A stretch of DNA of 64,000 nt, taken from assembly GCA_021108075.1 (NCBI GenBank), contig JAIORP010000168.1:2649-66648 (forward strand). The letters run 5' to 3'. Shown here piece by piece: positions 2,954 through 63,751 of this stretch. The notes beneath the pieces were generated by a model. The model worked only from the letters and a program-made list of their open reading frames with translations, was not told the origin of the DNA and searched no databases. The translations under genes and the position numbers were made by a program. Within the stretch, counting starts at the first letter, position 1. The number at the start of each line of letters is the position of its first letter. This DNA comes from Candidatus Omnitrophota bacterium. Lineage in GTDB: Bacteria; Omnitrophota; Gorgyraeia; Zapsychrales; Zapsychraceae.

Positions 2954-3035
2954 ATACCAATTCCATTAAATAATGACCAAAACCAATTCTGCTTTTCAGA
3001 ATTAAAATAGAACAATTTATTAATGGATTTGGTAT
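2954..3035 (+). repeat. MITE-like element, short form, copy A. It is 78 bp of element plus flanking TA dinucleotides.
   Basis: ATACCAATTCCATTAAATAATGACCAAAACCAATTCTGCTTTTCAGAATTAAAATAGAACAATTTATTAATGGATTTGGTAT. It has imperfect terminal inverted repeats and a central hairpin AATTCTG-CTTTT-CAGAATT. Near-identical copies lie at 14478, 45874, 47947, 61592 and 63648. Confidence 0.8.
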
Positions 3036-14477: not shown

Positions 14478-14559
14478 ATACCAATTCCATTAAATAATAA
14501 CCAAAATCAATTCTGCTTTTCAGAATTAAGATAGAACAATTTATTAATGGATTTGGTAT
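14478..14559 (+). repeat. MITE-like element, short form, copy C
   Basis: ATACCAATTCCATTAAATAATAACCAAAATCAATTCTGCTTTTCAGAATTAAGATAGAACAATTTATTAATGGATTTGGTAT. It is flanked by the TA-containing ends ATA...TAT. Confidence 0.8.
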
Positions 14560-30407: not shown

Positions 30408-30432
30408 ATACCAATTCCGTTAAATAATAATT
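30408..30432 (+). repeat. Solo terminal arm of the MITE-like element
   Basis: ATACCAATTCCGTTAAATAATAATT matches the left terminal inverted repeat only. Confidence 0.5.
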
Positions 30433-30477: not shown

Positions 30478-31932
30478 CTACAACAAAGGAGAAAACAAAC
30501 GGGAAAAAGAATTCCGGAATTTCTCAAAAACACTCAAACGGTCGTAATATTCCAGGGTGATCTCTTCACACAACTCAAGGTCCCTTTGAAAAGACTGCAT
30601 AATTTCATCTGTTATCGACTTATCATAGATTAATGTATTTGATTCATAATTCAAATGAAAACTCCGTATATCCATATTCGCTGTGCCGACCGAACAAATG
30701 TCCTCATCAACGCAAATCGTCTTGGCGTGCAAAAAGCCGGCTTTGTATTGATAAATTTTTACTCCGGCTAACAATAACTTTTCATAAAATGTGAACGCGG
30801 ACCAGAATGGCAATCTGCGGTCGGGCAAACCCGTCATCATCAGACGCACATCCACACCAGACAAAGCGGCTGTCTGCAATGCCATATAAATGCTTTTATC
30901 CGGGACAAAATAGGGCGACTGAATGTAAACCTTCCGAGCCGCTGAAGCAATCAAGGTAAAATATAATTGTTGAATCGACTCCCACGCTGAATCCGGACCT
31001 GATGTTGTAATCTGCATCGGAACGCCTTGTTCAACCTTTTTCGGGGTGGGAAAATATTGGGACTGGAATATCGACTCTTTGCCTGTATTCAACCAACTTG
31101 TCGCAAAAACCGACTGAAGAACCGCAACCGCCTCGCCTTCTATCCGCAAATGCGCGTCGCGCCAGGTGTCAAACCGTTTACCACCATCGATATACTCCTG
31201 CGCCATGTTCATGCCACCGGCGTATCCCACCTGCCCGTCAATAACAATAATTTTACGATGATTCCGGTAATTCAAGGTGTGGATGGTCAAGGGAGAACGA
31301 AAATCATAATAGGGATAAATTTGTATTCCGGCCTTCTGCAAAGAACGAGTATACCTGCTGGTTAACGCGAGACTGCCAACGGCATCAAAAAGAATGCGAA
31401 CCTCAACACCGGCTTTGACTTTATCTTCTAGAATACGGGTGATCTTTCGGGTTAATTTATCATTCCGCCAAATGTAGTACTCCAGATGAATAAAACTCCT
31501 GGCCTTTTCTATGTCGGAGCATAATGCATCAAATTTTTCTTTGCCTGAATAAAAAACCTTCACTTGATTATGGCTCGTTAAGATCGAATCTGAATTTGAA
31601 TACAGCAGATGAATGATTTTCCTCTTGGCTTCATTGGGATACATACGTTCAAGTTCAAGCAGGTTCCTGTTCTGTTCCTGGACAATCGGCTCCAACATGG
31701 CGTTCAGGTTCTTGTCCAACTGTTGTTGCTTCAGACGGCGCTCTTTTCTTTTCGGACGCCAATTCCGGCCAATTAAAAAATAAACGATTAGCCCTGCAAT
31801 AGGAAAAAGCATAAAAACAAGCAACCAGGCCAGCGTCGTCGTTGAATCCCGGTTATCCAACAATAAAAGAATGATGGTTCCGAGTAAATACAAATAAAAT
31901 AAAATTGAGAGTATAATCTGGAAATTATTCAT
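30478..31932 (-). CDS. cls: Cardiolipin synthase (PLD superfamily)
   Basis: 484 aa. It has two N-terminal TM helices and two HKD motifs (HRKIIVIDG and HAKTICVDE). Confidence 0.85.
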   Translation of the reverse strand: MNNFQIILSILFYLYLLGTIILLLLDNRDSTTTLAWLLVFMLFPIAGLIVYFLIGRNWRPKRKERRLKQQQLDKNLNAMLEPIVQEQNRNLLELERMYPNEAKRKIIHLLYSNSDSILTSHNQVKVFYSGKEKFDALCSDIEKARSFIHLEYYIWRNDKLTRKITRILEDKVKAGVEVRILFDAVGSLALTSRYTRSLQKAGIQIYPYYDFRSPLTIHTLNYRNHRKIIVIDGQVGYAGGMNMAQEYIDGGKRFDTWRDAHLRIEGEAVAVLQSVFATSWLNTGKESIFQSQYFPTPKKVEQGVPMQITTSGPDSAWESIQQLYFTLIASAARKVYIQSPYFVPDKSIYMALQTAALSGVDVRLMMTGLPDRRLPFWSAFTFYEKLLLAGVKIYQYKAGFLHAKTICVDEDICSVGTANMDIRSFHLNYESNTLIYDKSITDEIMQSFQRDLELCEEITLEYYDRLSVFEKFRNSFSRLFSPLL

Positions 31933-33464: not shown

Positions 33465-35606
33465 TTAGGAACTCATTTTGCCGATCAAGACCACAACACT
33501 GTACGGCTTCGCCAGGTAACGCTCCGGGGGGCTTAGCAACACTTCTGCTTCAATCTGACAAAATTCCTCTCCCGCAGGCAAATCCGTATCGATAGCCCGG
33601 TACCATTGTTTACCATCGTACTGAGGCAGTTCTATTGTCTGCTCTTTTTCATCAGCATTCAAAATAAAAAACAAATGATAATCCCCTAAATCCGAAGGGA
33701 TTTCGCTGCCATCAAATTGATAACACAAACACTTCAAGTCGGGATTCAACCAGTCAGGAGTATTCAGGTGAGCATCAAACCACAAAACGTCCGGAACATT
33801 ATCATGATCCTGGTCCTTTCCTGAAAGGAACTTCTCTCTTTTTAGAATAGAATAATGCTGTCGAAACGCAATCGCTTTCTGAGAAAAATGAAACAGGTCA
33901 TCATGTCTGTCTATCAGACCCCAATCAAACCAGGTCAGCTCATTGTCCTGGCAATAAGCATTGTTATTACCCTGCTGTGTGCGCATGCATTCATCTCCGG
34001 CTAACAACATGGGTGTTCCAATAGAGAAAAATAAAAAACATAAGGCGTTTTTAGCCATCTTTTTTCTCAAGCGGTTGACACTGTCTTCATCTGTTGGCCC
34101 CTCACAACCACAATTCCATGAATGATTATCATTGGAACCATCCCGGTTATCTTCCTTATTAGCTTCATTGTGTTTCTGGTTGTATGCGTACAAATCAGAC
34201 AAGGTAAAACCATCATGACACGTGATGAAATTGATGCTGTTATGAGGTTGGCGTTGATCCTGACCATACAGGTCAGCCGATCCCGTTAACCGCCAGGCAA
34301 GATCTTGTATTTGCCGGGGATCACCTTTATTAAAGCGTCTGATCGTGTCACGAAACCGCCCATTCCATTCGGACCAGTTATAAGGGAAATGGCCCACTTG
34401 ATAGGTTGTTAAATCCCATGGTTCCGCGATTAACTTGCGTTGATTCAGGACCGGATCGTCCTGAATCAATTTAAAAAACAGGGAGTCTTTATCATAACGG
34501 CCTTTCACCCGTGCTAATATTGACGCCAAATCGAAACGAAACCCATCCACATGCATAACCTCAACCCAATAACGCAAAGAATCCATCACAAGCCGCATGA
34601 CGAGAGGATGTTCAATGTTAAAGGTATTACCACAACCCGTATCATTCAGGTAATGGCGGTACGGTTGACCGTCTACGCCAACCAGCGAATAATATGTCGC
34701 ATTATCCACTCCGCGGTAACAAATGGTCGGTCCTAATTCATTCCCTTCCGCCGTGTGGTTATACACAACATCCATAATAACTTCTATCCCTGCCTTATGC
34801 AGTTCCCTGACCATTGTTTTAAACTCAACCACTTCTACTCCTGGTTCTCTTTTAGACCCATAGGATGGTTCCGGCGCTAAAAAGGAGACCGTGTTATACC
34901 CCCAATACTCACTTAACCCCGCGGAAACCAAACCATCGCGCACAAAAAAATGCTGCACCGGTAATACTTCAACCGCGTTGACACCTAATTTTTTAAGATA
35001 GGGAATTTTTTCAATAAGGCCAAGGTATGTTCCGGGATGTTTGACCATCGAACTTGGATGAGCGGTGAAACCTTTCAGATGAATTTCATAAAGAATCAAA
35101 TCGTTTAATGAAATATTCAACGGCTTGTCATCTTGCCAATCAAAATGATTGTCAATAACAAGGGATTTTGGCACATGCGCGAATGATTCTAATAAACTAA
35201 ATGAGAGGTCCTGCTCTTTATGATCCATAGCATAACCCTGCAAATGATTTTCGCTGTTGTCATATTGGCCGAAAACAGCCTTCGCATAAGGATCCAGGAG
35301 TAATTTATGGGCGTTAAACCGTTGTCCATTGACGGGATCATACGGCCCTTCGACTTTATAACCATACATCTGCCCCGGATGAATGCCTTCAACCCGAATG
35401 TGCCAGACCGCATGATCCGAACGCGTCAACGGAATAATGTCTGTTGGCGCTTGCCCCTTCCGGTCAAAAAGACACACGTAAACACACTGAGCGTATTCAG
35501 AATAGATAGCAAAATTTGTGCCATTCCCTTCCCAGGTGGCCCCGAGCGGTTCAGGCTGGCCCGGATGAACCTGCCGATTTGTTTTAGGTGTTATCTTGAT
35601 TGTCAT
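33465..35606 (-). CDS. glgX: Glycogen debranching enzyme (GH13)
   Basis: 713 aa. N-terminal CBM48 (QPEPLGATWEGNGTNFAIYS) plus GH13 motifs (DVVYNHT, GFRFDLAS, ITCHDGFTL). Confidence 0.85.
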   Translation of the reverse strand: MTIKITPKTNRQVHPGQPEPLGATWEGNGTNFAIYSEYAQCVYVCLFDRKGQAPTDIIPLTRSDHAVWHIRVEGIHPGQMYGYKVEGPYDPVNGQRFNAHKLLLDPYAKAVFGQYDNSENHLQGYAMDHKEQDLSFSLLESFAHVPKSLVIDNHFDWQDDKPLNISLNDLILYEIHLKGFTAHPSSMVKHPGTYLGLIEKIPYLKKLGVNAVEVLPVQHFFVRDGLVSAGLSEYWGYNTVSFLAPEPSYGSKREPGVEVVEFKTMVRELHKAGIEVIMDVVYNHTAEGNELGPTICYRGVDNATYYSLVGVDGQPYRHYLNDTGCGNTFNIEHPLVMRLVMDSLRYWVEVMHVDGFRFDLASILARVKGRYDKDSLFFKLIQDDPVLNQRKLIAEPWDLTTYQVGHFPYNWSEWNGRFRDTIRRFNKGDPRQIQDLAWRLTGSADLYGQDQRQPHNSINFITCHDGFTLSDLYAYNQKHNEANKEDNRDGSNDNHSWNCGCEGPTDEDSVNRLRKKMAKNALCFLFFSIGTPMLLAGDECMRTQQGNNNAYCQDNELTWFDWGLIDRHDDLFHFSQKAIAFRQHYSILKREKFLSGKDQDHDNVPDVLWFDAHLNTPDWLNPDLKCLCYQFDGSEIPSDLGDYHLFFILNADEKEQTIELPQYDGKQWYRAIDTDLPAGEEFCQIEAEVLLSPPERYLAKPYSVVVLIGKMSS

Positions 35607-35828: not shown

Positions 35829-37133
35829 TTAAAACGGTTTTTGAAATTTAAAGAGGATCTCTTCATTCGTTGTCTCGTCTTGAACTGATTGATCTCCCGC
35901 GCCCAAGTCCTTTAATTCTGTTGACACTTCGATAGAAAAATTCTCTGTGATAGCGACTTCGCCGCCTATCTTCTGTTTTGTTTTGACCTCTTGATTCTGT
36001 GCGTCCACATGACGCTCAATATTATAACTGGCCTCAATGTTGTCGGTTATTTCTTTCGAAACCGAAACCCCTTTAACGTCCGCATCAAAGGTGATGGAGA
36101 TATCCTTAAGGCCTAACTTATTCGCTACTTGATCCAATTGGCCGCCCAACAAGAAGTAATCGATCACGTCCTTAACCATATCAGGACTGAGTTGTCCTTT
36201 TCGAAAATGCTCTTCGGTTGTCTTCCATGTCTTATTTGTCGCCAGCATCAGCAACAACTTGCTTTGCGCCATGGGGGGAGTTGATGTGACGGAGATGTCC
36301 GGTTGCTGTAAATCTCCACGCAATGCGATGTTGATGTTCACTTCTTCAATTTCGGATATAGCTCGAATAGCCAGACGGGGATTTGCCGGATCACCAGAAA
36401 AATAAATTTTACTCTGAGCCAAATGAATCAGCGCCGTCCTTTTCCCGAATATCTCTCCCTGCTGCACATGGACTGTGCCATGCAATTCAACATCATCCTT
36501 CTTCTCTTTGATGTTCAGTTCAAAAGAGCACGGCGCGTTCTCCAGGGTCACAAGTTCATGTTTAATTTTAGAAACATGTGCTTTACCAGTGACATCAAGA
36601 CTGTCTATAGTCCCCTTCACAAAAATGTCAACATCAAATAAATCCCCTTTTAACTTCTTAAATTGAGAATCTTGGATAAAGTGCTTCAAATCTTCGATCG
36701 ACATCTTATACGTCGAGACATTAAAATCCAGTTTATCCCCGTTTAGAGAACCAGAAATCAAAATCGGATCAGAATCATCAATGACCGCACGAAAATTATC
36801 AATCCTGACTTCAATCCCTTCGAGACTCAACCTCTTCAAAGCAAAAGACATGTCCTGAATCTTAATGACATTCGGTTTTGGCAACTCATCCATATCGGAA
36901 ATCTGCACATTCTTAAATTCAAGTCCATCGACAAAAGTTCCGCTCACACTCTCCCAGCTTATCTGATATTCCTGTGCATAGCGATCTTTTATTTTCTCCA
37001 AAGCAAAATGACACCCGCCCTGCGTGAATAAAAGGTAATAACCCAGACCAAGGGCGCAAAAAACAAAAATAAAAAATAAGATAGAGATTGATATGGGTAC
37101 AATTCTGGAAGAGTTTCGCATTTTATTATCCAT
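35829..37133 (-). CDS. AsmA/TamB-like (DUF490-type) envelope protein with an N-terminal TM anchor
   Basis: 434 aa. It has a single N-terminal TM helix and a beta-rich repetitive body. The assignment is tentative. Confidence 0.4.
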   Translation of the reverse strand: MDNKMRNSSRIVPISISILFFIFVFCALGLGYYLLFTQGGCHFALEKIKDRYAQEYQISWESVSGTFVDGLEFKNVQISDMDELPKPNVIKIQDMSFALKRLSLEGIEVRIDNFRAVIDDSDPILISGSLNGDKLDFNVSTYKMSIEDLKHFIQDSQFKKLKGDLFDVDIFVKGTIDSLDVTGKAHVSKIKHELVTLENAPCSFELNIKEKKDDVELHGTVHVQQGEIFGKRTALIHLAQSKIYFSGDPANPRLAIRAISEIEEVNINIALRGDLQQPDISVTSTPPMAQSKLLLMLATNKTWKTTEEHFRKGQLSPDMVKDVIDYFLLGGQLDQVANKLGLKDISITFDADVKGVSVSKEITDNIEASYNIERHVDAQNQEVKTKQKIGGEVAITENFSIEVSTELKDLGAGDQSVQDETTNEEILFKFQKPF

Positions 37134-37143: not shown

Positions 37144-37328
37144 ATACCACATCCATTAATGAATTGTTCTATTTCGATTTTGGCAATTATACCAATTCCG
37201 TTAAATAATTTTCAAAAATTCTCATCGATTTTGGCGAACGCTTTTACGCGAATTGAGAAAAAAAATCAGTAAAATTATTTATTGGATTTGGTCTCGCTAT
37301 TTGTACAATTATTTAACGTAATTGGTAT
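37144..37328. repeat. Nest of at least three fragments or diverged copies of the MITE-like element
   Basis: 37144-37188 is a reverse-arm fragment (ATACCACATCCATTAATGAATTGTTCTATTT...). 37189-37293 is a diverged forward long-form copy (ATACCAATTCCGTTAAATAAT ... TTATTGGATTTGGT). 37308-37328 is TTATTTAACGTAATTGGTAT, a terminal arm whose last T overlaps the pfkA stop codon. Confidence 0.55.
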
Positions 37329-38401
37329 CAGTCACCAAAACATGTTCCCAATGAACGGGCCGACTGAACGAGATAATGTTGCGGATCAATCAGTCGGGCC
37401 CCCTTTGCCACATCGGATAAAGCGACATCGATAAGCTGCTGGCCCTGGACTCCGACCATAAACCCGAACTTATTGCGTTGAATCATATCGACAACATACG
37501 TGCCCAACTTAGTTGCCAGGACACGGTCAAATGCGCACGGTGCTCCCCCACGCTGCAAATGCCCGATGTCAACGGCCCGGGCCTCTAAACCCGTGATCTC
37601 TTCAATCTGTCCGCTTAATATCTGGGCAATCCCACCCAACCGGACAGGACCACTCGCCTTATCAGCCATTTTCTCAATAACCACATCACCGCCTTGCGGC
37701 TTAGCTCCCTCGGCGACAACGATAATGCTAAATCCGCTGTCTTTTTGATTTCTGTCTTTAACACGCTGCGCGATCACATCTAAATTGTATGGAATTTCAG
37801 GAATCAAAATGATATCTCCGCCACCGGCAATACCGGAGTAAAGGGCGATCCAGCCCGCGGTGCGCCCCATGGCTTCAATGATCATCACGCGATGATGGGA
37901 TTGGGCGGTTGTATGAATGCGGTCAATCCCATCGGTCACGACATTGACGGCTGACTGAAATCCGAAAGTTATTTCCGTTCCGATAATATCATTATCAATG
38001 GTTTTTGGTACACCCACGACAGGAATACCGGATTGCATCATTTTACAGGCGATCGCTAAGGTGCCATCGCCGCCAATACAGACTAAACAATCAAGGTCCA
38101 GGTCTCTAATATTTCTGATGACATCAGCGGATACATCAACCGGATCAGCCCCTTTAGTGGCGACATAGTTATAAGGATCGGCCTTGTTTGTCGTTCCTAA
38201 TATTGTTCCGCCTAAAGTTAGAATGCCTGAAACATCTTTAAAGTCTAATGCCCGGTATTTCTCATTGATCAGACCTTCAAATCCATCTTCAATGCCGATC
38301 ACATCCATGTTGCGGGATAAAATCGCTTTTTTGGTTACCGCCCGAATCACGGCATTAAGGCCGGGGCAATCCCCTCCACCTGTCAGTATTCCTATTTTCA
38401 T
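37328..38401 (-). CDS. pfkA: 6-phosphofructokinase
   Basis: 357 aa. It has GGGDCPGLNAVIR, GGDGTL, PKTIDNDI and MGRTAGW motifs. Confidence 0.85.
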   Translation of the reverse strand: MKIGILTGGGDCPGLNAVIRAVTKKAILSRNMDVIGIEDGFEGLINEKYRALDFKDVSGILTLGGTILGTTNKADPYNYVATKGADPVDVSADVIRNIRDLDLDCLVCIGGDGTLAIACKMMQSGIPVVGVPKTIDNDIIGTEITFGFQSAVNVVTDGIDRIHTTAQSHHRVMIIEAMGRTAGWIALYSGIAGGGDIILIPEIPYNLDVIAQRVKDRNQKDSGFSIIVVAEGAKPQGGDVVIEKMADKASGPVRLGGIAQILSGQIEEITGLEARAVDIGHLQRGGAPCAFDRVLATKLGTYVVDMIQRNKFGFMVGVQGQQLIDVALSDVAKGARLIDPQHYLVQSARSLGTCFGD

Positions 38402-42951: not shown

Positions 42952-44691
42952 TCACGGGTTAACAGTAAATTTATCAAAAATTTTTTGAAGTTGTGGAGAA
43001 GGCATGACGCAATTTTCTTTTTCCTCTATTTGATGGATCGAAGCCGGTTCATTTATGTAGACCTCAACCCATACACCATCTTTTTGAAAAACATCGACGC
43101 GTTTAAAATGATGATAAAACAGGTCCCTGACTGTCTTCGTCTCCTGGTCAAGCAACCCATCCTTGATCCACATGGAATAGACGAGCCATAACCGGTTAAA
43201 AGACAGGTCTTCAATATTGAACTCACTTAAAAGCCGATCATTCTTAAAAGGCGTGAATTTATAAAACTGTAATGGATCGCTTTCATCCACAATATCATAT
43301 TCGTTTTCCATGCCCAGGAAAAAAATTTCAAAGGCCGAAATCCCATACGGAAAAAACACCTTGTAAAAAGATTCTGGCAGTTTGTCCCGGTATTTGGCAT
43401 AATGCCGATAGACTTGCTGACGGGTTAAAACATAAGAATGAAAATTTGCGGCAACAACGATATCGCCCTCCTTCATATTCAACGGCAGGGGATCTAATAT
43501 CTCAGAGGCCTGTCTTTTCGGGGGTGTTCCCATAAAAACAGCCTGCAAGTATCCACGCGGATACGCGTAACCCTTATAATAGTTTGTCAAAGCCGGCAGC
43601 TGAAAAGCGCAGAAAATAATGACGCAGATGACTTTATAATGTTTTTTCTTTAACGCGTCGATACCGCACGCCATCAATAAATAATAGAACGGCGAGAAAA
43701 TGATCAATTGCCGATGGACAAAAACAGGTAAAATCCATCTCGAAAGATAAAACATGATGATCACCGGACAAAACAAAAAAGCACTCAATGAAACCGACTG
43801 GACCTTATCCACCTTAAATAAAGCGAAAATGCCATAACAGGCTATGGAAAAAAAGAACAAAAAACTTAATAAAAAATGAAAATAATTCGACCCCGAATAA
43901 CCGACACCGAAAATCATCCAGGCAAAAAGAAAGACTTCATATCTGGGTGAAATCAGCCAAAAATTCTTTCTGACCATGTCCATGTGCTCAGAAAACAATG
44001 CTTTAAGGGCAAAAATAACGATTAAAATAATTACAATCGACAGAATCCACTTGAATAATTTTGAACGGTGTTTTTGCGTTAATAAAGGTATGAAAGAAAA
44101 CAGCAGCAAAAAAACAGCAAAATAATTCGACAGCACAGCCATGAAACCCATGACCGTGAACATCACCCAATGCCCCCGTCGATCCGTTTGAAAAACCTTC
44201 AGATAAAAATAAACCCACACCAAACAGACAAAAACCGCCATAGCGTACCCGCGCGCTTCCTGCGCGTACCAGAGATGGAATGGATTAACCGCCATGATAA
44301 GAAGGGTGTAGAACCCCACACGGGGATTCACAAAGTGATGGGCGATATACCACAAAACAATCAGGGCCATCATACTGAAAAAGACAGACATCAGCCGCAG
44401 CGACATACCATCGCCGATCAGCACACTGTAGAGATAGACAAGAATATTATAAATCGGGGAATGCGGGTCGCGCATCAACATATCCGTGAAGACTTCAATC
44501 GCAGGGGTGTCCGTCAATTCAGCAGTGATTTGAATGCTCTTCGCGCCATACAGATCATTACCGATCTCATCATGCCACAAATCAAAAAAATCATAATGGT
44601 ACAGACGAAGCCCTAAAGCAAGAATAAATAAGAATAGACAGAGAATTTTACGGATAGGTAATTTATTGGATAAAACTATGAAATCAAACAT
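42952..44691 (-). CDS. GT-C fold membrane glycosyltransferase (GT39/GT83, PMT/ArnT-like)
   Basis: 579 aa with about 12 TM helices. The acidic first-loop motif FFDLWHDEIGNDLYGAK matches the DE motif of PMT/ArnT. It has a C-terminal soluble domain. Confidence 0.5.
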   Translation of the reverse strand: MFDFIVLSNKLPIRKILCLFLFILALGLRLYHYDFFDLWHDEIGNDLYGAKSIQITAELTDTPAIEVFTDMLMRDPHSPIYNILVYLYSVLIGDGMSLRLMSVFFSMMALIVLWYIAHHFVNPRVGFYTLLIMAVNPFHLWYAQEARGYAMAVFVCLVWVYFYLKVFQTDRRGHWVMFTVMGFMAVLSNYFAVFLLLFSFIPLLTQKHRSKLFKWILSIVIILIVIFALKALFSEHMDMVRKNFWLISPRYEVFLFAWMIFGVGYSGSNYFHFLLSFLFFFSIACYGIFALFKVDKVQSVSLSAFLFCPVIIMFYLSRWILPVFVHRQLIIFSPFYYLLMACGIDALKKKHYKVICVIIFCAFQLPALTNYYKGYAYPRGYLQAVFMGTPPKRQASEILDPLPLNMKEGDIVVAANFHSYVLTRQQVYRHYAKYRDKLPESFYKVFFPYGISAFEIFFLGMENEYDIVDESDPLQFYKFTPFKNDRLLSEFNIEDLSFNRLWLVYSMWIKDGLLDQETKTVRDLFYHHFKRVDVFQKDGVWVEVYINEPASIHQIEEKENCVMPSPQLQKIFDKFTVNP

Positions 44692-45429: not shown

Positions 45430-45678
45430 CTATTGCGCGCAAATAGCCGTATACCAATAAGTCGCGTAACTAGGTGAATAAGGGTTTCCCGCCGGTTGAT
45501 TGCGCACCCAACCTGCCGGGCACGGATCCCCCCACTGGCCCGCGGTAGTAGATGAATAAATACGCCAACTGACACATTGCGCTTGTGCTGTTGGTGGTTC
45601 AACACGCAGATTGGAAATACAGAATACGGTCAAAGTGATCAGTATACAAATAATGACTTGAAGTATTCTTTTAAACAT
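45430..45678 (-). CDS. Small secreted Cys-rich peptide, paralog 1 (82 aa)
   Basis: Signal peptide then AQA-QC. The mature peptide has 3 Cys, CPAGW, NPYSPSYATYWYTAIC, and is Ser/Thr/Tyr/Trp-rich. It has a Shine-Dalgarno AGGAGG. An AT-rich putative promoter region lies upstream. Confidence 0.6.
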   Translation of the reverse strand: MFKRILQVIICILITLTVFCISNLRVEPPTAQAQCVSWRIYSSTTAGQWGDPCPAGWVRNQPAGNPYSPSYATYWYTAICAQ

Positions 45679-45873
45679 GCATCTGCCTCCTTTTATGACA
45701 TATACAAAGATAAGTGCCGATGTTATTGATAATATTTTTATATTAAATCTTCATTAATAAGAATAATAGATGCTTTTAAAATAATACCATAAAATAAATA
45801 AAATGCAAAGCCTTTCGTCTTTTTCCTACCCGGCAACGAGACAAAAAAAATTACCTTCCCTATCAGATCAATG

Positions 45874-45978
45874 ATACCAATCCCATTAAATAATGACCAA
45901 AACCGATTCTGCTTTTCTCGACGCTTTAGCGAGAATGTCAGGATTGAAATAAAAACAATTCATTAATGGATTTAGTAT
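45874..45978 (+). repeat. MITE-like element, long form, copy F (about 100 bp of element plus TA flanks)
   Basis: ATACCAATCCCATTAAATAATGACCAAAACCGATTCTGCTTTTCTCGACGCTTTAGCGAGAATGTCAGGATTGAAATAAAAACAATTCATTAATGGATTTAGTAT. The long form equals the short form plus an approximately 22-bp nested hairpin (TTCTCG...CGAGAA) in the central loop. Confidence 0.8.
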
Positions 45979-46125
45979 GGCGATAAAGTAATATCTATCA
46001 AAAATTTTAAAATTATTATTGAACCGGACGGCGAAAAGCTCCCTATCGGTTCGTGTCATCGGTCATCGCGTTCTTTTTATTTCATCCCGGTCCAATAGAA
46101 GTAAAAACCTCAGGGTCTATACCGC

Positions 46126-47331
46126 TCAACGAGACTGGATCGCTTGAAAAACATCATCCGGTCTTATTTGTTGAATACAAATATTATTCTTGCAGGTGGA
46201 AACGCGGTGGTTAAAAACAGACAAACAGGGTGAACAGGGCCATTGGGAATAAAAAATGTGAATATGCTCCCCTAATGGCGCGAAAATCCCGGGACTCTCC
46301 GGTCCGAACAAAACATATTGTTTGATCGACGTCATCGAGGCTAAATGCGCCAGGCCGCAATCATTGGCAATCAAGGCATCCGCGATATCAAACAGGGCAA
46401 ACAACTCGAATATTTGTGTCTGCCCGGTTAAGTCCAGACAAACGTCCTTTCCCAAAGCCTGACAAAATTGCCGGGCTTTCGTTTTGCAATTTTCTGTGCC
46501 GATCAGGAGAACAAAGCAATCCTTTTGAGCAACGATCTTTTTGCCTAATGTGACAAAAGACTCGAACGGCCACTCCCTTAAAGCAAGCACCCCATCACCT
46601 AAATTCATCAGCATCATTCTTGATGCCGCAGGCACGCCCATGCGGATCAATTTTTCCCGCATCGCATCAATGGCTGGCTGTTGGACTTGATATTGAGGAC
46701 GGTCTTGATCATCCATACACTGTCTTTCAATTAAGTCCGGAGTCACCTTGGCCACTGACGCGACCACCTGGCTAAAAGCCAAAAACATCTCACTGATATG
46801 TTTTTGGGGGTTATAAATAACTTTATGCGTCACTAAATCGCCGCGGTACAAACCTTCGAAGCTAAACCGGTCAAACCCAATCCTTTTTGGCGCGGAACTC
46901 AAATAAGACAGAATAGCGGTAAAACGGGAAAAAAATTCTAAATCTAAGACGACATCCACTTTTTCCTTTCTCATGCCGGCAATGACCGCAAACACATCAT
47001 GAACGAACTGTGAGAATGTCGTATCGCGAATCGTGTATATCTTTTTTAATGGGATGATATCCAGGACATCAAATATTTGACGGTTGCATTCAAATGTCAC
47101 GAAAAAAAACTGAGCCTGCGGATAAGCCGCCTGCATCCGCCTGATAAGGGGATAAGACAAAACAATCCCTCCCATTTCCGATGGCTTTAAAAAAAGGATC
47201 TTTCGCGGATTCGGTGCGGTATCCTTTTTTGACCTAAAAAGACCCGTAAGCTTATTAAAAACTGTCAGGAAGAAACACAGCGGAATGCCAACCCAAAAAT
47301 CTATAAATCGCATAAAATTTAATGTCATCAT
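46126..47331 (-). CDS. Glycosyltransferase family 9 (heptosyltransferase-like)
   Basis: 401 aa. The C-terminal motif NDCGLAHLASMTSIKQYVLFGPESP resembles the GT9 consensus (NDSGPMHLAAA...LFGPT). Confidence 0.65.
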   Translation of the reverse strand: MMTLNFMRFIDFWVGIPLCFFLTVFNKLTGLFRSKKDTAPNPRKILFLKPSEMGGIVLSYPLIRRMQAAYPQAQFFFVTFECNRQIFDVLDIIPLKKIYTIRDTTFSQFVHDVFAVIAGMRKEKVDVVLDLEFFSRFTAILSYLSSAPKRIGFDRFSFEGLYRGDLVTHKVIYNPQKHISEMFLAFSQVVASVAKVTPDLIERQCMDDQDRPQYQVQQPAIDAMREKLIRMGVPAASRMMLMNLGDGVLALREWPFESFVTLGKKIVAQKDCFVLLIGTENCKTKARQFCQALGKDVCLDLTGQTQIFELFALFDIADALIANDCGLAHLASMTSIKQYVLFGPESPGIFAPLGEHIHIFYSQWPCSPCLSVFNHRVSTCKNNICIQQIRPDDVFQAIQSR

Positions 47332-47477
47332 ACTTAAAAATCCAGAGGTCGCTGTTTTAAAGGTTTACAACACCCGTATACTATCGCGATAAATATTGGT
47401 TTATATAATTTTTTAGAATTATTATTAATCCTGAGGTATAAAAGTCAAGTTGTAAATTCACGAACAAAAATCCAGAC

Positions 47478-49151
47478 CTAATGATTTGGGCCTTCCTTTT
47501 TCTTGTACACATAAAATAATGTCATCATCTGACGGTCGGTCGACAGATTAAAAAAATCTTTCTTTTCGACTAAATCATAATGAGCGCGCACGGCCTGGAC
47601 GATTTCCTCCGTCCAACTTTGATAATGAATACCGATATCCGAAAGAACAATGAGATCAAAACGTTGAGAAACAATATCATTAATCAAAAGAGACTGGTCC
47701 CAATGCCCCCGGTCAGACAATTCCGTCATGGCAAAGGGGCTATAAAGCGAAAGTTTTCCATTGATAGCCGCGTATCCGGCATATTCCAGAAGAACTTCTC
47801 CCGGAGCGTCATGGACCAATTGGTTTAATTGTTGAGCGATTTTTTTATTATATTCATCTGGAACTGTGCGGTCGACTTTAATAAACAACATCCCCAACTG
47901 CAAAAGCAGACAAAGACTGATGGCGATTTTAATTAAACCGTTTTTTATACCAAATCCATTAATAAATTGTTCTATCTTAATTCTGATATTCTCGCTAAAT
48001 CGTCGAGAAAAGCAGAATTGGTTTTGGTCATTATTTAATGGAATTGGTATTAACGTCTCATTATCCAGCGCTAAGGTCTGTGAGAGGGCACAACCCGTCA
48101 GGATACAGATCGCCGCCCAAATCTCAAGGAAATAATTCAGGGAAGACCCATCTTTACCGGCTGTCACCGTAATGGCACAGGCAAAAATAAAAAAAAAGTG
48201 CTCGAGGCGCCATGACCTTTTGAGGCCATGATAAAAAATCAGCCCCAGAGACAATAAAAAAACAAATCCGTGAGACGCGATAAACCGGCCCATCCAATCG
48301 AAATATCTGTCCCACTGAAAAGCGCCGAGCGTATAACGCGTAATGTGATAAACAAATTGCCCTTTTGTCATAATCAACATCCCGATCACAAGCGAGACGC
48401 CAAGGCCTGTCAGGACAGACAATAAAATCATTATTTTTTTTAAATTCTCGTCATTCCAGGAGACATTGAATCGGATCCCATTCGGCTGACGGCAAGCGAG
48501 CAGCGCCAGACAACTGAATGGGGCCGCGATGGAACTTTGACGCGAAAACAATGCGGCGATAAACAAACCCGCGGCCAGACAAATCTTCTTCATATTATTT
48601 TGAGTATCGCCTTCTATAAATAAAACGAGTCCCCAGACCGAAAACATCACCGCCAGCATATCAACCCGGACCAGAACAGACCAAATATGGACCCACCCTG
48701 AAGAAACGAACAAAAAAGCAGAGAATAACGCCGCCATGTTGTTTTTGGAGCGCGCGTAGACAAACCGCCCGATCGCGTAGGCGCTCAATACCGCGGCGAT
48801 AATGGAAATCAGACGCCCCAAAATTAATTGGGGTCCGAATAAACGGATCAGCAGGGACAACAAAAAAGCATACAAAGCGGGATAATTCATCACAAAGAAA
48901 GGTTCCTGATTTAAGGGAGTAAAGACCGGAACACCTTGAGACATCGCGTACGCCGACTGAAAAACCAATCCCTCCCCGCCATTAACATCATAAGGGAACG
49001 TGGCGATCTGATAGGCATACAGGAGATAGGCCGCACATTGAACAAGCAGAAACAGCACCGCCAGGCAAATAAAAATATGAAAAGGTTTGTTCGGATTGAA
49101 ACAATTTTTGAAAATAAAAAAATATTCTTTCATGCAACTCCGACTCATCAA
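47478..49151 (-). CDS. GT-C-like polytopic membrane protein carrying an in-frame MITE insertion (34 extra codons)
   Basis: 557 aa with about 10-11 TM helices and a C-terminal soluble domain. Residues IPIPLNNDQNQFCFSRRFSENIRIKIEQFINGFG are the translation of MITE copy G (47947-48050). Confidence 0.5.
   Translation of the reverse strand: MMSRSCMKEYFFIFKNCFNPNKPFHIFICLAVLFLLVQCAAYLLYAYQIATFPYDVNGGEGLVFQSAYAMSQGVPVFTPLNQEPFFVMNYPALYAFLLSLLIRLFGPQLILGRLISIIAAVLSAYAIGRFVYARSKNNMAALFSAFLFVSSGWVHIWSVLVRVDMLAVMFSVWGLVLFIEGDTQNNMKKICLAAGLFIAALFSRQSSIAAPFSCLALLACRQPNGIRFNVSWNDENLKKIMILLSVLTGLGVSLVIGMLIMTKGQFVYHITRYTLGAFQWDRYFDWMGRFIASHGFVFLLSLGLIFYHGLKRSWRLEHFFFIFACAITVTAGKDGSSLNYFLEIWAAICILTGCALSQTLALDNETLIPIPLNNDQNQFCFSRRFSENIRIKIEQFINGFGIKNGLIKIAISLCLLLQLGMLFIKVDRTVPDEYNKKIAQQLNQLVHDAPGEVLLEYAGYAAINGKLSLYSPFAMTELSDRGHWDQSLLINDIVSQRFDLIVLSDIGIHYQSWTEEIVQAVRAHYDLVEKKDFFNLSTDRQMMTLFYVYKKKEGPNH
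47947..48050 (-). repeat. MITE-like element, long form, copy G, located inside the 47478..49151 ORF
   Basis: ATACCAAATCCATTAATAAATTGTTCTATCTTAATTCTGATATTCTCGCTAAATCGTCGAGAAAAGCAGAATTGGTTTTGGTCATTATTTAATGGAATTGGTAT. A 100-bp element plus 2 bp of TA equals 102 bp, which is 34 codons. Confidence 0.8.
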
Positions 49152-49181
49152 ATAACATCTATTAATAATTGAAAAATTTCA

Positions 49182-49997
49182 TCATGTCGTTTTAGAAAGA
49201 CACTGTTTCTTAAGGTATTGCATTCCGTCATTAACCTTTTCACTGTAAAACCGCATCATTTCTTGTTCATATTCATCATAAGAATGATCATACAAATAAT
49301 ACGCCTTAACAAAAATGTTAAAAAGGATCAGTTGAAAACAACGGCCCTGCATCTGGTGGTCCATCCTTGATCCTTTAACATCTTTGGACGGCATCAGTCC
49401 CAATTCGTAAAGCCTGGAACCCGCCGTGTTACTGTTGCTGTCCTCTTCACCGGTATCTGTAGCCGGGATCATTTTATCAAGACGCAGGCGCTCAACAAAC
49501 CCCGTCTCCTTATATCCGTCGAAGTCGAAAACAGGATTAGAATACATCACCCCAAACTCGGCGTAAAGGTCTTTGATCATCTCAACACCCCGTTTCATTT
49601 GCGCGGGAAAAATATTCATCCCCTGGTTCGCCCCATCGCAAACATGCGCCACCTGATTGTCCAGGCAGTACAGGATCGTCTGCATATGCATGGCTAACTT
49701 GCATAAACCACAATTTGACAGAAGAAAAAATCCGAATTTACGCCAATAATAGAAATAGCGCGAGTAAAACACAAACCTGGTGATGGCATCGACGTCGATG
49801 ATCGCATGGCTGAACTTTTCCTGTCCATATTTTTCCTGCAGTTTATGAACATTGAATGTTGAGTTCTTCACGCGAAAGAAGCCAAACCGCCTGTAAGTGA
49901 CCAGATGGACCCTGGAGAATTGCTGAGAAACTAAAGCCGCCGCAAGAGTGGAATCCGTTCCACCGGAGAACAAAACGACAATTTCATTTTTATTCAA
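49182..49997 (-). CDS. PP-loop ATP pyrophosphatase (QueC-like, N-type ATP PPase superfamily)
   Basis: 271 aa. It has the SGGxDS motif (VVLFSGGTDSTLAA) and a Cys cluster NCGLCKL. Confidence 0.55.
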   Translation of the reverse strand: MNKNEIVVLFSGGTDSTLAAALVSQQFSRVHLVTYRRFGFFRVKNSTFNVHKLQEKYGQEKFSHAIIDVDAITRFVFYSRYFYYWRKFGFFLLSNCGLCKLAMHMQTILYCLDNQVAHVCDGANQGMNIFPAQMKRGVEMIKDLYAEFGVMYSNPVFDFDGYKETGFVERLRLDKMIPATDTGEEDSNSNTAGSRLYELGLMPSKDVKGSRMDHQMQGRCFQLILFNIFVKAYYLYDHSYDEYEQEMMRFYSEKVNDGMQYLKKQCLSKTT

Positions 49998-50178
49998 CCG
50001 GCTTCTCCTTTTTAACAGCTTTCCTTAACTGCCCGACGATAAACTTCAACAGCGAAAAATACATAAAATAAAGTCCTTGAACGATCCAACCGATGAATTC
50101 CGTGTAAAGGCACCGAAGTTTATACGGCAATACCATGGCTACGCTGCAAATAATACATGCGAAAAATTTTTTTAACAT
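49990..50178 (-). CDS. Small hydrophobic protein, translationally coupled between the rSAM and PP-loop genes
   Basis: 62 aa with two predicted TM segments. It overlaps the downstream gene by 8 bp and starts 4 bp after the upstream stop. Confidence 0.3.
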   Translation of the reverse strand: MLKKFFACIICSVAMVLPYKLRCLYTEFIGWIVQGLYFMYFSLLKFIVGQLRKAVKKEKPVE

Positions 50179-50181
50179 TCC

Positions 50182-51633: not shown

Positions 51634-51641
51634 AACATCTT

Positions 51642-57734: not shown

Positions 57735-57735
57735 T

Positions 57736-61591: not shown

Positions 61592-61695
61592 ATACCAATT
61601 CCATTAAATAATGATCAAAACCAATTCTGCTTTTCTCGACGACTTAGCGAGAATATCAAAATTAAAATAGAACAATTTATTAATGGATTTGGTAT
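61592..61695 (+). repeat. MITE-like element, long form, copy H
   Basis: ATACCAATTCCATTAAATAATGATCAAAACCAATTCTGCTTTTCTCGACGACTTAGCGAGAATATCAAAATTAAAATAGAACAATTTATTAATGGATTTGGTAT. Its terminal T is the first base of the TAA stop (minus strand) of the 61695..62804 gene. Confidence 0.8.
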
Positions 61696-62804
61696 TATTC
61701 TTTCAGTACGACGTCTGAGAATTGCAATTTATGAGAGAAGGGCACAAAGAAGAGAAGTCCTAAAAGGACAGGAACGATCTGGTGCACGAAAAACACCAAT
61801 AATCCCAATGCGAGTAGCGTTTCTTTCGGCGCGAAATGCGCCAAAAAAATAATATACGCCCCTTCCCGCACGCCAAAGCCCGATATGGATACAGGCAGTT
61901 GAGTCAGCAGCACCACCAATGGCATATACAAAAACAAGGCCCCGAGGGGGATCACCAGACCATAGGAACGCGCGAACACAAAGCAGATCAATAATTCAGA
62001 AATTTGATAACCCATGGACAAGACAAGCAAAAACAACAACTTTTTAAGCGACAAACCATGCCATAGGTCTATATTTTTTTTAAAGAGCTGAAATAACCGC
62101 GATTCTCTGGCAAAACAGAACAAAAAAAGAATTTTCTTCGCGGTTTCTTTTTTAAGGATAAACAGACACAAGGAAAACATCACAACCACACCCATGACCG
62201 CCATGATCATAAAATATTTCTGATAAATTATCAACTCTCCCTGCCGCATGCCATAAAGCAAACAACCGAGTGCGAAAAAAATTAAAATTGTAATCAGATG
62301 AATAATATTGGCAATCACATTGGACAATAAGCCTTCTATGAGGGGAACATGATGATACTTCTTCAAATAGTAGACTGAAAAAATCTCGGTATTCTTAACA
62401 GTAGGAATAAGTTTGTATGGCAGGCTCCCGCAACGGATAAACAGCGCATTCATATACGACATAGGATAGTTCATATACGCCAGTATTGTCTGCTTAATAA
62501 ACGCGCACAAAAAAATATTCAACAAGATGGAAATGGCTATACCTGTCAGCAGGGAGGCGCTCTTAACCCGGGAGATAAGCTGGAAAGTTTGTTGGAAGTC
62601 AACAACCGATTTCAAATAATAGAAAATGACACATGTGACAGCGAGAATAATGATGAAAGACAGAATAAGCCTTAAGAGGTGTCGATCAAAAAAATTTAAT
62701 AAAATTCTTTCATCTTTCATCATATTGAAATAAAGCCCACCAAAGAATAAATTTTGATGAAAAATATCATTCTTTGAACGGACGACCCCAGCGGCCCTCT
62801 CCAA
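61695..62804 (-). CDS. Flippase-like UPF0104 membrane protein (lysylphosphatidylglycerol-synthase TM-domain family)
   Basis: 369 aa with about 8 TM helices. It is encoded 1 bp downstream of a GT2 gene. Confidence 0.55.
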   Translation of the reverse strand: MERAAGVVRSKNDIFHQNLFFGGLYFNMMKDERILLNFFDRHLLRLILSFIIILAVTCVIFYYLKSVVDFQQTFQLISRVKSASLLTGIAISILLNIFLCAFIKQTILAYMNYPMSYMNALFIRCGSLPYKLIPTVKNTEIFSVYYLKKYHHVPLIEGLLSNVIANIIHLITILIFFALGCLLYGMRQGELIIYQKYFMIMAVMGVVVMFSLCLFILKKETAKKILFLFCFARESRLFQLFKKNIDLWHGLSLKKLLFLLVLSMGYQISELLICFVFARSYGLVIPLGALFLYMPLVVLLTQLPVSISGFGVREGAYIIFLAHFAPKETLLALGLLVFFVHQIVPVLLGLLFFVPFSHKLQFSDVVLKE

Positions 62805-62805: not shown

Positions 62806-63561
62806 TTAAGTAATATTTTTAACGGCTTTTTTTTGTCGGGATGCCAAACGATATAAATCCCTCAGCGCTTCAATGATAACTTCCAGACTGGCGCCCGTTT
62901 GCTTTCCCTGCACGCGGGGGAAATGGGCAACGGGAACTTCCTTTATCCGGCACCCCTTTTCTCTGGCTTGAATAAAAAAATCCGTATAAAAAACACCTGC
63001 GTGACAGTCAAATTCATCAAAGTTAAAACGATCTTTTTTAAACAGTTTAAATCCGCAATTTATATCCTTCAAGCTTAAATCAAACAACCGGCAGGCAAAC
63101 CACGTATACATCTTCCCCAGTAATATACGGTACACGGAATCCCGGCGATGAGACCGATATCCCGTGATAATGTCATCGTCTTCGAGAAATGGCTGCATAT
63201 CTACGAGTGAAGAAATTTGAAATTGACCATCCGCGTCCATAAAAAGGATGGACGAATATTGAGCGATGTGAAGCCCTGAAAGAAGCGCCGCGCCATAGCC
63301 CTCATTTTCAGAATGCGTGACAACTTTTAACGATGGATAGCGTGCGGCAGCGTCTTTTAAAAATTGAGCGGTTTTATCGCGGCTCCCGTCATCAACAACA
63401 ATCACTTCATATCTTAAAAAAAATGTTTGTTTTGATAAATAATCATATGTGTCGCTTAATGTTTTACCTATAATATCCGCTAAATCATACGAGGGCAAAA
63501 CGACCGATATAGCATCTTTATTCATATTCTTCCTTTTTGAATCGGGCTCGACCGTAATCAA
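62806..63561 (-). CDS. Glycosyltransferase family 2 (polyprenol-phosphate sugar transferase, DPM1-like)
   Basis: It has VVLPSYD, VVDDGSRD and FMDADGQ (DxD) motifs. The true start is probably the internal MNKDAIS at about 63525. Confidence 0.8.
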   Translation of the reverse strand: MITVEPDSKRKNMNKDAISVVLPSYDLADIIGKTLSDTYDYLSKQTFFLRYEVIVVDDGSRDKTAQFLKDAAARYPSLKVVTHSENEGYGAALLSGLHIAQYSSILFMDADGQFQISSLVDMQPFLEDDDIITGYRSHRRDSVYRILLGKMYTWFACRLFDLSLKDINCGFKLFKKDRFNFDEFDCHAGVFYTDFFIQAREKGCRIKEVPVAHFPRVQGKQTGASLEVIIEALRDLYRLASRQKKAVKNIT

Positions 63562-63647: not shown

Positions 63648-63751
63648 ATACCAAATCCATTAATGAATTGTTTTATTTCAATTCTGATATTCTTGCCTTA
63701 GCGTCGAAAAAAGCAGAATTGGTTTTGGTCATTATTTAATGGAATTGGTAT
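63648..63751 (-). repeat. MITE-like element, long form, copy I
   Basis: ATACCAAATCCATTAATGAATTGTTTTATTTCAATTCTGATATTCTTGCCTTAGCGTCGAAAAAAGCAGAATTGGTTTTGGTCATTATTTAATGGAATTGGTAT. Confidence 0.8.

Follow-up and report, generated by a model that had tools for sequence, protein, structure and literature searches.

Short palindromic mobile repeats lying in frame within bacterial genes are known from Rickettsia (the Rickettsia palindromic elements, RPEs; Ogata et al., 2000, 2002; reviewed in PMC10969869 and PMC3184786), and further bacterial comparators are the MITEs QMITE1 and QMITE2 of Coxiella and the intragenic ERIC, BOX, and RU elements (PMC5896051; PMC3184786). In-frame insertion of MITEs in bacteria is already well documented (RPE, QMITE, ERIC), so the gain from one more locus is incremental. 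The RPEs share with our locus a short palindromic mobile repeat (about 100-150 bp) lying in frame in a conserved gene, and the addition of a few dozen residues at a site predicted to be compatible with the fold. An ORF is conserved in the RPE families, and copies inside genes are very common (44 such insertions in R. conorii), neither of which is true of the present family; the latter instead has clear terminal inverted repeats (TIRs) and a TNA target-site duplication (TSD), and its host is an uncultured, MAG-derived Omnitrophica bacterium rather than a Rickettsia in which RPEs have been described. The QMITE, ERIC, BOX, and RU elements resemble our family in being mostly intergenic MITEs that occasionally lie in frame or extend gene ends: for example, QMITE2 supplies the C-terminal 33 aa of EnhC (PMC5896051; PMC3184786). 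However, the QMITE sequence family and its TSDs differ (direct repeats of 7-11 nt for QMITE2 and 2-3 nt for QMITE1), and our insertion is internal to a conserved, confidently modelled enzyme, not in a hypothetical protein or at a 3′ end. Our overall account, to which we give a probability of roughly 0.8, is that a MITE inserted into a glycosyltransferase gene with a 3-bp TSD, kept the reading frame, and now codes for a putatively cytoplasmic loop in a probably active enzyme, the mobilisation having probably been of IS5 type.

The gene lies on the reverse strand of the window (the whole 64-kb stretch of DNA that was analysed). Its maximal ORF (47478..49151; 557 aa) has a TTG start at 49151; the real start is likely the ATG at 49133, which has a GGAG ahead of it, giving a gene at 47478..49133 and a product of 551 aa that is identical to a deposited protein (P0001, [quoted passage not shown]). 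The ORF, Pfam, its homologs, and Foldseek identify it as a GT-C membrane glycosyltransferase (PMT_2, or “GT39 family”; GT39/GT83-like in CAZy terms). The Pfam match to PF13231 (PMT_2; residues 91-221) is marginal, scoring 27.0 bits where the cut-off is 26.1, and an NCBIfam profile search of the glycosyltransferase gave no match; Foldseek with the AF2 model found GT-C folds in the PDB at E-values of 2e-7 to 3e-5, with STT3, AglB, PglB, ArnT, ALG9/12, and AftA matched at probability 1.00. With the GT-C_A enzymes (ArnT 5EZM/5F15, PglB 3RCE, AglB, STT3, and PMTs) the protein shares a multi-TM N-terminal module, periplasmic loops in which acidic and basic residues are conserved, a C-terminal soluble domain that follows the last TM helix, and the Pfam PMT_2 assignment, but the sequence identity is only ∼10-15% and the TM-scores are 0.44-0.55. 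Eleven TM helices are counted in the query, and its C-terminal domain is small (about 125 aa). ArnT and PglB have 13 TM helices.

Conservation was read from 100 homologs. E60 (in GEG), W157, R162, and D164 are conserved in at least 90% of them and are all kept in the query, and, as is a hallmark of GT-C enzymes, there is an acidic residue in the first extracytoplasmic loop with conserved residues on the same face; by analogy, E60, R162, D164, and W157 may have a catalytic role. Of the 42 columns with a conservation of 80% or more, the query keeps 36 (including E60, R113, W157, R162, D164, Q205, H269, N339, Y340, E343, and W484). The C-terminal soluble alpha/beta domain (aa 433-557; 47481..47855, reverse strand), delimited from the AF2 model and homolog conservation, has residues that are conserved across homologs at G451, L454, P472, L478, G482, W484, F498, and Y525. 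The window contains, at 42952..44691, a second PMT_2 gene, which was dropped as an uninserted reference, since it cannot be aligned to the query gene.

The first-pass annotation had placed a repeat copy inside the ORF at 47947-48050, and this copy is indeed 96% identical to that at 61592-61695 (4 of 104 positions differ) and 86-91% identical to the others. According to the TSD analysis, the element proper (copy G; 102 bp, 47948..48049, reverse strand) runs TACCAATTCC...GGATTTGGTA on the gene strand, and is flanked by TAA on that strand on both sides: the upstream-in-gene copy of the TSD is at 48050..48052 (TTA on the forward strand) and the downstream-in-gene copy at 47945..47947. The MITE, a non-autonomous element, transposed into a TAA trinucleotide within the glycosyltransferase coding sequence, duplicating the 3-bp target. 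The net insertion is 102 + 3 = 105 bp, or 35 codons (I368-I402 in the 557-aa numbering), so the reading frame is kept, and copy G is read through as (I)PIPLNNDQNQFCFSRRFSENIRIKIEQFINGFG(I). Copy G is free of stops in only one insertion phase, that in which codon position 2 is taken by the T of TNA, and this is the phase in use. With 105 bp in this phase, the gene remains a single ORF that is longer by 35 residues; that the frame in use is stop-free had been noted at the outset. Copy G is young, with 0-2 private changes and a divergence of at most ∼2% from its nearest relatives. It folds as a long hairpin (z of -5.4 as DNA and -7.3 as RNA), and its mRNA segment can form a hairpin of -30.5 kcal/mol, which could lower expression; no terminator-like site was found within the element by a terminator scan, and an Rfam scan of 45500-49500 gave no match.

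Copy G belongs to a family with at least seven copies or remnants in the window, at least 11 copies in a second MAG, and one in a marine-sediment contig. The copies are 80-105 bp long, without transposase coding capacity. The flanks of 19 independent copies delimit the element as TACC...GGTA, bordered by direct repeats of 3 bp with the sequence TNA; the duplication is perfect in 11 of these copies (P about 7e-14), and all full copies have TIRs of 16-21 nt, in which ATACCAATTCCATTAA(ATAAT) pairs with (ATTAT)TTAATGGAWTTGGTAT. The closest sister of copy G (61593..61694, forward strand; 96% identity) is intergenic, and its right TSD (61695-61697) coincides with the stop codon of a reverse-strand gene (61695..62804). 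Another intergenic copy (63649..63750, reverse strand) is ∼90% identical to copy G and has an imperfect TSD (TCA/TTA), and a 103-bp copy (45875..45977, forward strand) is likewise intergenic, with the GT9 gene on one side and the second PMT_2 gene on the other. Two 80-bp short-form copies are on the forward strand at 2955..3034 (without the central ∼22-nt hairpin; TSD TAA/TAA) and 14479..14558 (TSD TGA/TGA); there is also a nested or degenerate pair at 37145..37327 (no strand assigned), with the inner copy (37189-37294) within an outer short copy, and a solo TIR remnant at 30408..30428 (forward strand). Targeting of stop codons was considered and set aside: three TSDs are real stop codons, which is not clearly above chance in short intergenic regions. 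As context for a possible polyprenyl-phosphate-linked sugar donor, the gene at 61695..62804 is an LPG_synthase_TM gene, and a nearby ORF (62806..63561) looks GT2-like by reading of its sequence.

Only copy G sits within a real gene (1 of ∼20 copies); the others are intergenic or adjoin gene ends. The net length is a multiple of three in 6 of 22 family copies, most of them being of a size that would shift a reading frame, and the phase-0 frame is open in 4-5 of the 22, most copies carrying stops in every frame. Judged from these sequences, the family is not coding-compatible overall, and copy G is a lucky or selected survivor. A reading of the family as an RPE-like “coding palindrome” was dropped, because frames and lengths vary among the copies.

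The AF2 model has a mean pLDDT of 90.9 and a pTM of 0.91; from residue 21 on, pLDDT falls below 70 only in four blocks over 361-400 (46-65) and in 221-230 (62). In this model, the 35 extra residues form a loop between the penultimate TM helix (aa 338-361; 48069..48140, reverse strand), which contains the conserved N339, Y340, and E343, and the last TM helix (aa 403-425; 47877..47945, reverse strand), which follows directly after the insertion; the predicted structure thus bears out the initial suggestion of an insertion in a loop and not in a TM helix. Loops rich in K/R alternate with conserved-polar loops, giving a consistent 11-TM scheme with N-in/C-out orientation. The number of TM helices, the positive-inside rule, and the fact that GT-C enzymes have their C-terminal domain in the periplasm lead us to infer that the element-coded loop is cytoplasmic (its side comes from parity and charge, not from coordinates); the C-terminal soluble domain would be periplasmic, and the loop would therefore lie on the opposite membrane face from the periplasmic E60, R162, D164, and the G335/N339/Y340/E343 motif. 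The element-coded peptide is non-hydrophobic, with a net charge of about +1, and is predicted to combine a disordered segment with a short amphipathic helix (387-398); its presence should leave the topology unchanged. The insertion suggests that the last inter-TM loop of GT-C enzymes, putatively cytoplasmic, is likely a permissive insertion site.

Because the loop appears to be cytoplasmic, the peptide is non-hydrophobic, and the topology would be unchanged, the glycosyltransferase is probably still made and still active. The further proposal that the 35-residue MITE peptide is translated and forms a new cytoplasmic loop module, retained by a GT-C enzyme that is still active, is a tentative one, to which we would give slightly less than even odds. 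The intact ORF is itself weak evidence of function, since the insertion is recent and decay is not yet expected. The alternative that survives best is that the insertion abolished or impaired the activity of the enzyme, with misfolding, inefficient insertion into the membrane, or the mRNA hairpin as the cause, so that the gene is a young, undecayed pseudogene. We regard this as unlikely, though it carries real weight: copy G arose very recently (it has few private changes and shares 96% identity with its sister), the RNA hairpin is strong (-30.5 kcal/mol, z of -7.3), and P92, a proline in 100/100 homologs, is replaced by alanine in the query. Selection for tolerance need not be invoked, because the family is not coding-compatible, and this gene might conceivably be dispensable given the other PMT_2 gene (42952..44691), although the pair is unalignable. 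However, the insertion site is of the most permissive kind, a short and poorly conserved loop that varies in length (in homologs, 27-93 residues separate the anchors), on the inferred cytoplasmic side, away from the conserved periplasmic residues, and 36 of the 42 conserved positions are intact. Moreover, all other copies found are intergenic or at gene ends, as purifying selection against disruptive insertions in genes would leave them, so an intragenic copy that survives is more likely to be benign.

A second alternative concerns the size of the insertion. The first-pass annotation had described a mobile repeat of 100 bp with a duplicated 2-bp TA, making 34 codons, and had taken the in-frame result as independent support for that model. 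The mobile repeat stands, and its dimensions become 102 bp with a 3-bp duplication (35 codons); the in-frame result gives no independent support to a model of the element, since 102 and 105 are both multiples of three. An element of 100 bp with a duplicated TA (or AT), for a net 102 bp and with I402 native, is allowed by the invariant ends ATACC...GGTAT, which permit an “AT” reading. Moreover, the query minus 34 aa would be 523 aa long, with a G353-Q418 spacing of 30 residues, and the best homolog, P0003, has the same two values. However, the spacing in other close homologs is 27-29 residues, so the agreement with P0003 is not diagnostic, and the 2-bp model leaves unexplained that, in 14 of 19 copies, the two sides carry the same base outside the invariant A/T (P 2e-5), and that there is a T at -2 in 17 of 19 and an A at +2 in 15 of 19; we consider it improbable. 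With the 3-bp duplication, the query minus its 35-residue insert has 522 aa, compared with 523 aa for P0003; the G353-Q418 lengths alone cannot tell 34 from 35 codons, since they vary from 27 to 30 residues in the four closest homologs. The pre-insertion allele would read ...ACG TTA AAA AAC... (...GAGACGTTAAAAAACGG...) under the 105-bp model, and ...ACG TTA ATA AAA AAC... (...GACGTTAATAAAAAACGG...) under the 102-bp model; both are reconstructions, because neither an empty site nor an ortholog of >50% identity was found in any collection searched. A codon-degenerate pattern for the empty site, allowing for both the 34- and the 35-codon models, had no match in the JGI metagenomes.

An assembly artefact is a much weaker alternative. 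The contig is a SPAdes metagenome node with ∼14x coverage and the element is multicopy, so copy G in the gene might be a repeat-induced chimera; but copy G has its own perfect 3-bp TSD (a chimera would create no target duplication), its sequence is unique and unlike that of every other copy, and both flanks run in one frame into homologous protein sequence. We therefore think it very improbable that copy G was placed in the gene by misassembly.

Comparison with homologs bears on whether the segment was inserted at all. A word-indexed search found only the query itself and one distant match, and an exhaustive representative search found 2508 homologs. Nearly all of the best 150 of these align with the query in two stretches, the first ending at query position 347-370, and in an alignment of 101 sequences the columns of residues 373-397 are occupied in only 1-2 of the 100 homologs. 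In more than 100 homologs a single polypeptide contains both the membrane part at the N-terminus and the C-terminal domain, almost none having an equivalent segment, and P0002 and other full-length homologs span both parts. The E343-Q418 spacing is 74 in the query compared with a median of 36 in homologs; after taking out 35, it becomes 39, inside the main homolog range (31-47). The segment-free homologs are all distant (at most 41% identity to the query), and no close ortholog (>50% identity) was present in any collection searched. The same pair of PMT_2 paralogs is kept at the P0003 locus, where the downstream gene has no similarity to the GT9 gene of the window. The earlier proposal of a MITE-like element inserted in a single coherent GT-C gene agrees with these comparisons, as homologs join both halves without the segment and do not all carry a native equivalent of about 34 aa. 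Least probable of all, and close to negligible, is that the segment is a native, lineage-specific loop or that the two parts are separate genes: 1 of 71 homologs does have a comparable spacer (93 residues), but the segment, bounded by TIRs and a TSD, belongs to a dispersed repeat that is found in other genomes, 100 homologs have both parts fused without it, and no stop or frame change separates the N- and C-terminal parts.

Taking the segment as a MITE insertion, we propose an IS1031-type mobilisation because of the 3-bp TNA duplication. Members of the IS1031 group (IS5 family) prefer 5′-TNA-3′ targets and generate exclusively a 3-bp direct repeat (PMC12016507), and both the TNA target and the 3-bp direct repeat are the same in our family; the analogy points to a transposase of the IS5-family, IS1031-group type. 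The ends of the family (TACCAATTCCATTAAATAAT) differ from the single quoted IS1031-group IR (GAACCTGTCTAGTATCT), and other superfamilies with TNA or TWA targets may have provided the mobiliser. Neither a transposase gene nor a full-length autonomous IS with matching ends was found in the window and 13 loci; unpaired TIRs, at 30408 in the window, at 5712 in locus L004, and at 632 in loci L007/L009, were rejected as signs of a parent IS, being solo remnants or chance matches.

The locus offers a case of a transposable element absorbed in a conserved membrane enzyme that is intact at the sequence level, with the ends, the TSD, and the phase all defined. We found no published description of this MITE family (TNA target; 80-bp and 102-105-bp forms), which occurs in Omnitrophica-type MAGs and in a marine-sediment contig. 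If the MITE peptide is indeed translated and kept in an active enzyme, this would be a natural protein sequence made by an IS1031-type MITE, outside Rickettsia and in a candidate-phylum bacterium, and such insertions would provide a natural map of permissive sites for GT-C enzymes. Annotation pipelines label genes of this kind as intact (“glycosyltransferase family 39 protein”), and also predict spurious small proteins across intergenic copies. A search with concatenated forward and reverse MITE peptides gave a single further match, a 107-aa “hypothetical protein” from the same MAG.

One copy of a dispersed MITE (copy G, 47947-48050) lies inside a reverse-strand glycosyltransferase gene of the window, sharing 96% identity with the copy at 61592-61695 and 86-91% with those at 63648-63751 and 45874-45978. 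The ORF as read from the sequence runs from 49151 to 47478 (reverse strand, TTG start, 557 aa), and its residue numbering is used throughout; the deposited protein (P0001, [quoted passage not shown]; 551 aa) starts six codons further in, at an ATG at 49133 with GGAG upstream. The source contig is a metagenome node of 72.6 kb. The match to Pfam PMT_2 is barely over the threshold (27.0 bits vs. 26.1), and a Foldseek search of the AlphaFold2 model against the PDB returned GT-C enzymes exclusively (STT3, AglB, PglB, ArnT, ALG9/12, and AftA; E 2e-7 to 1e-4). As the first-pass annotation had read it, the frame is continuous across a stop-free frame of the element: ...DNETL IPIPLNNDQNQFCFSRRFSENIRIKIEQFINGFGI KNGLIK....

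An exhaustive HMMER search found 2508 homologs, and alignments were made with 14 and with 100 of them. For nearly all of the best 150 of the 2508, the alignment falls into two stretches, the first of which ends somewhere within query residues 347-370, just before the element. A native loop is rejected, since no close relative in either alignment has an equivalent segment: comparison with homologs that lack it leaves the columns of residues 373-397 occupied in only 1-2 of the 100. For the E343-Q418 spacing, the query value of 74 contrasts with a homolog median of 36 (main range 31-47, one outlier of 93) and falls to 39 once 35 residues are subtracted; similarly, the best homolog (P0003, 41% identity) has 523 aa, and the query without the insert 522. 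Two separate genes are likewise rejected, since the distant homolog P0002 and all full-length homologs are single chains spanning the membrane part at the N-terminus as well as the C-terminal domain; the proposal that the element sits inside a single coherent GT-C gene thus holds. On the metagenome contig of P0003 the adjoining gene is homologous to the second PMT_2 gene of the window (42952..44691; 33% identity, E 2e-106), so the pair of PMT_2 genes is conserved.

The ends of the element were analyzed in 19 independent, de-duplicated copies having both ends. All 19 share the termini A-TACC...GGTA-T, and the base triplets immediately outside TACC and GGTA make up a TNA direct repeat: the 3-bp repeat is perfect in 11 (P 7e-14; 0.023 per copy expected by chance), T is found at position -2 in 17 (P 7e-8), A at position +2 in 15 (P 2e-5), and the variable middle base is the same on both sides in 14 (P 2e-5). 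A 2-bp AT or TA duplication, which has no free positions, was rejected because it leaves the flank matches unexplained. Duplication of 3 bp at TNA targets is given as the distinguishing mark of IS1031-group elements within the IS5 family (PMC12016507); a search of the window and the other MITE-bearing loci revealed no autonomous partner. On the forward strand, copy G consists of TTA (47945-47947), TACCAA...TTGGTA (47948-48049, 102 bp), and TTA (48050-48052), so that the insertion adds a net 105 bp, equal to 35 codons (I368-I402), and the empty site would have been GAG ACG TTA AAA AAC GGT, translating as ...E T L K N G.... The earlier model of 100 bp plus a duplicated TA, giving 34 codons, is one codon short by this analysis, and the in-frame outcome, which had been taken as support for it, cannot discriminate between the models, since both 102 and 105 are divisible by three. 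Homolog loop length is no help either (G353-Q418 spans 27-30 residues in the four closest), and the target-site duplications (TSDs) alone separate the two.

In the AlphaFold2 model, built on 101 sequences (mean pLDDT 90.9, pTM 0.91), the insertion maps to the segment linking TM helix 338-361 with the last one (403-425), outside both; this last helix leads to a C-terminal alpha/beta domain (433-557). The MITE-coded peptide is modelled as extended over 362-386, followed by a short helix (387-398), with pLDDT of 46-65 over residues 361-400; elsewhere, confidence drops only at the N-terminus and in a short loop (221-230). Along the chain, K/R-rich loops (KN, NNMKK, RQPNGIR, and KRSWR) alternate with loops of conserved polar residues (E60; R162/D164; Q205; T262/H269; G335/N339/Y340/E343). 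The C-terminal domain is periplasmic in GT-C enzymes, as established for PglB and ArnT. Loop alternation, TM count, and this placement together suggest an 11-TM topology (N-in/C-out) that is self-consistent and would make loop 362-402 cytoplasmic. The peptide lacks hydrophobic character (its helix has a mean Kyte-Doolittle value of -0.4), and its charged residues, four K/R and three D/E, would fit a cytoplasmic position.

Judging from sequence, we put the probability that the enzyme tolerates the insertion at about 0.5-0.6. That the gene is instead a young pseudogene or a hypomorph seems rather unlikely: the recipient loop is short, unconserved, and variable in length in the family, and probably lies on the opposite face from the conserved periplasmic residues; of the 42 positions with at least 80% conservation across 100 homologs, 36 are retained, every charged or polar one among them; a terminator scan found no terminator-like signal brought in by the element; and all other copies found are intergenic or at a gene end, as expected if disruptive intragenic insertions are purged. 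On the other side, copy G is young (4 differences from its nearest sister copy, 0-2 of them private), so an intact ORF is weak evidence of function, and the mRNA hairpin could reduce expression. In addition, P92, a proline shared by all 100 aligned homologs, is here Ala (codon 92, 48876-48878; NYPA in place of the NYPP motif), a change that may be peculiar to the lineage or may point to relaxed constraint.

The whole element forms a single long hairpin with terminal inverted repeats of 16-21 nt (DNA -17.1 kcal/mol, z -5.4; RNA -30.5 kcal/mol, z -7.3), and matched no family in an Rfam scan. Most of 22 copies have stops in all frames, and the net insertion size is a multiple of three in only six, the commonest form being 103 + 3 = 106 bp. 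Copy G is open in one phase per orientation, the same phase both ways (ATA CCA...) because the ends are symmetric. We infer that a member of the 102-bp subfamily landing inside a gene would keep the ORF in roughly one case in three, namely when the T of its TNA target falls at codon position 2; the in-frame outcome is thus a moderate stroke of luck combined with survivorship rather than something the element is designed for. In-frame MITE insertions in bacterial genes are described as "not unusual", with Rickettsia palindromic elements (RPEs) as the extreme case (PMC10969869; PMC3184786), and Coxiella QMITE2 is in frame in several ORFs and provides the C-terminal 33 aa of EnhC (PMC5896051). 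The RPEs are a "coding palindrome", whereas the family here is not. A literature search for MITEs together with Omnitrophica/Omnitrophota found no paper. The case thus adds a member to a well-documented phenomenon: it joins a family with an IS1031-like target, apparently undescribed, to a single cleanly bounded in-frame insertion whose place in a GT-C enzyme is mapped on a structural model.

Two short-form copies of 82 nt (2954-3035 and 14478-14559) lack the central ~22-nt hairpin (TCTCGACG...CGAGA) and have perfect TSDs (TAA and TGA), evidently a deletion-derivative subfamily still able to transpose. The window also contains a solo end (30408) and a nested or degenerate pair, with an outer short copy (37144-37328) and an inner copy of ~106 nt (37189-37294); the right TSD of the outer copy, TCA, is the TGA stop of a phosphofructokinase gene (37328..38401, reverse strand). 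Similarly, the right TSD (TTA) of the sister copy at 61592-61697 is itself the TAA stop, on the gene strand, of an LPG_synthase_TM gene (61695..62804, reverse strand), so this stop was regenerated by the target duplication, and on another MITE-bearing contig (L002, 6157-6159) a 301-codon ORF ends in a TAA stop that is the left TSD. Since both TAA and TGA fit the TNA target, gene ends may be safe landing sites; these three cases are not clearly more than chance. A 137-aa ORF (61439-61852, forward strand) owes its existence to read-through of an intergenic copy along the open frame of that copy, as does a 107-aa protein of the same MAG deposited as "hypothetical protein" (P0152, K8S27_09180), which carries IPIPLNNDQTQFCFSRRFSENIRIKIEQFINGFG; both are likely annotation artefacts.

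An exact-pattern scan found the family in three further sources: six contigs (L002-L007) of the MAG CAZIRV01, labelled "uncultured Planctomycetales"; VAPK01 metagenome contigs (L009-L012 and L014) from the same organism (99-100% identity); and one marine-sediment contig (L013, ORDP01). Their copies are mostly 105 nt, with ends 88-95% identical. The CAZIRV01 contigs have 36-39% GC, against 42.5% for the window, and some of their genes have homologs in the window (L005, for instance, matches 8868-9731 by tblastx); possible explanations are that CAZIRV01 is a relative of Omnitrophica type or that the element has moved from one lineage to another.

The glycosyltransferase gene lies within a reverse-strand cluster that also contains a GT9 heptosyltransferase-like gene and the second PMT_2 gene. 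Next to these GT-C and GT9 genes, the dense part of the cluster at 49182-58926 comprises four radical-SAM genes (three with a B12-binding domain above the Pfam cut-off) and genes for a DUF362/ferredoxin (4Fe-4S) protein, a PP-loop (QueC-like) protein, a GDSL lipase, and a DUF5989 small protein. We read this part as a putative envelope or lipid modification locus of an unusual kind. Nearby are the LPG_synthase_TM gene and a putative GT2-like ORF (62806..63561), called by eye from its sequence, which, if a GT2, could make a polyprenyl-phosphate sugar donor; such a neighbourhood would fit a locus that modifies envelope glycolipids or glycans. A 772-aa polytopic membrane protein without a Pfam match (59130-61448), which adjoins the glycosylation genes, might be another GT-C-like enzyme.

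Elsewhere in the window, a run of alpha-glucan metabolism genes (17684-35606) encodes a GlgE-like maltosyltransferase, a TreS/Mak-like fusion (1116 aa), GH57 + DUF3536, and branching and debranching-type enzymes, and is broken by a cardiolipin-synthase-like PLD gene (30478..31932). The ORF at 5079-10022 (1647 aa) has only a weak family match, to PEP-utilizers_C. A lone, nearly perfect 94-nt palindrome (35696-35789; 46-nt arms, 93% complementary, with a 2-nt spacer), outside the MITE family and unrepeated in the window, lies between a CBM48/alpha-amylase-family gene (33465..35606) and a TamB-like gene (35829..37133), and folds as RNA at -84.8 kcal/mol (z -14.9).
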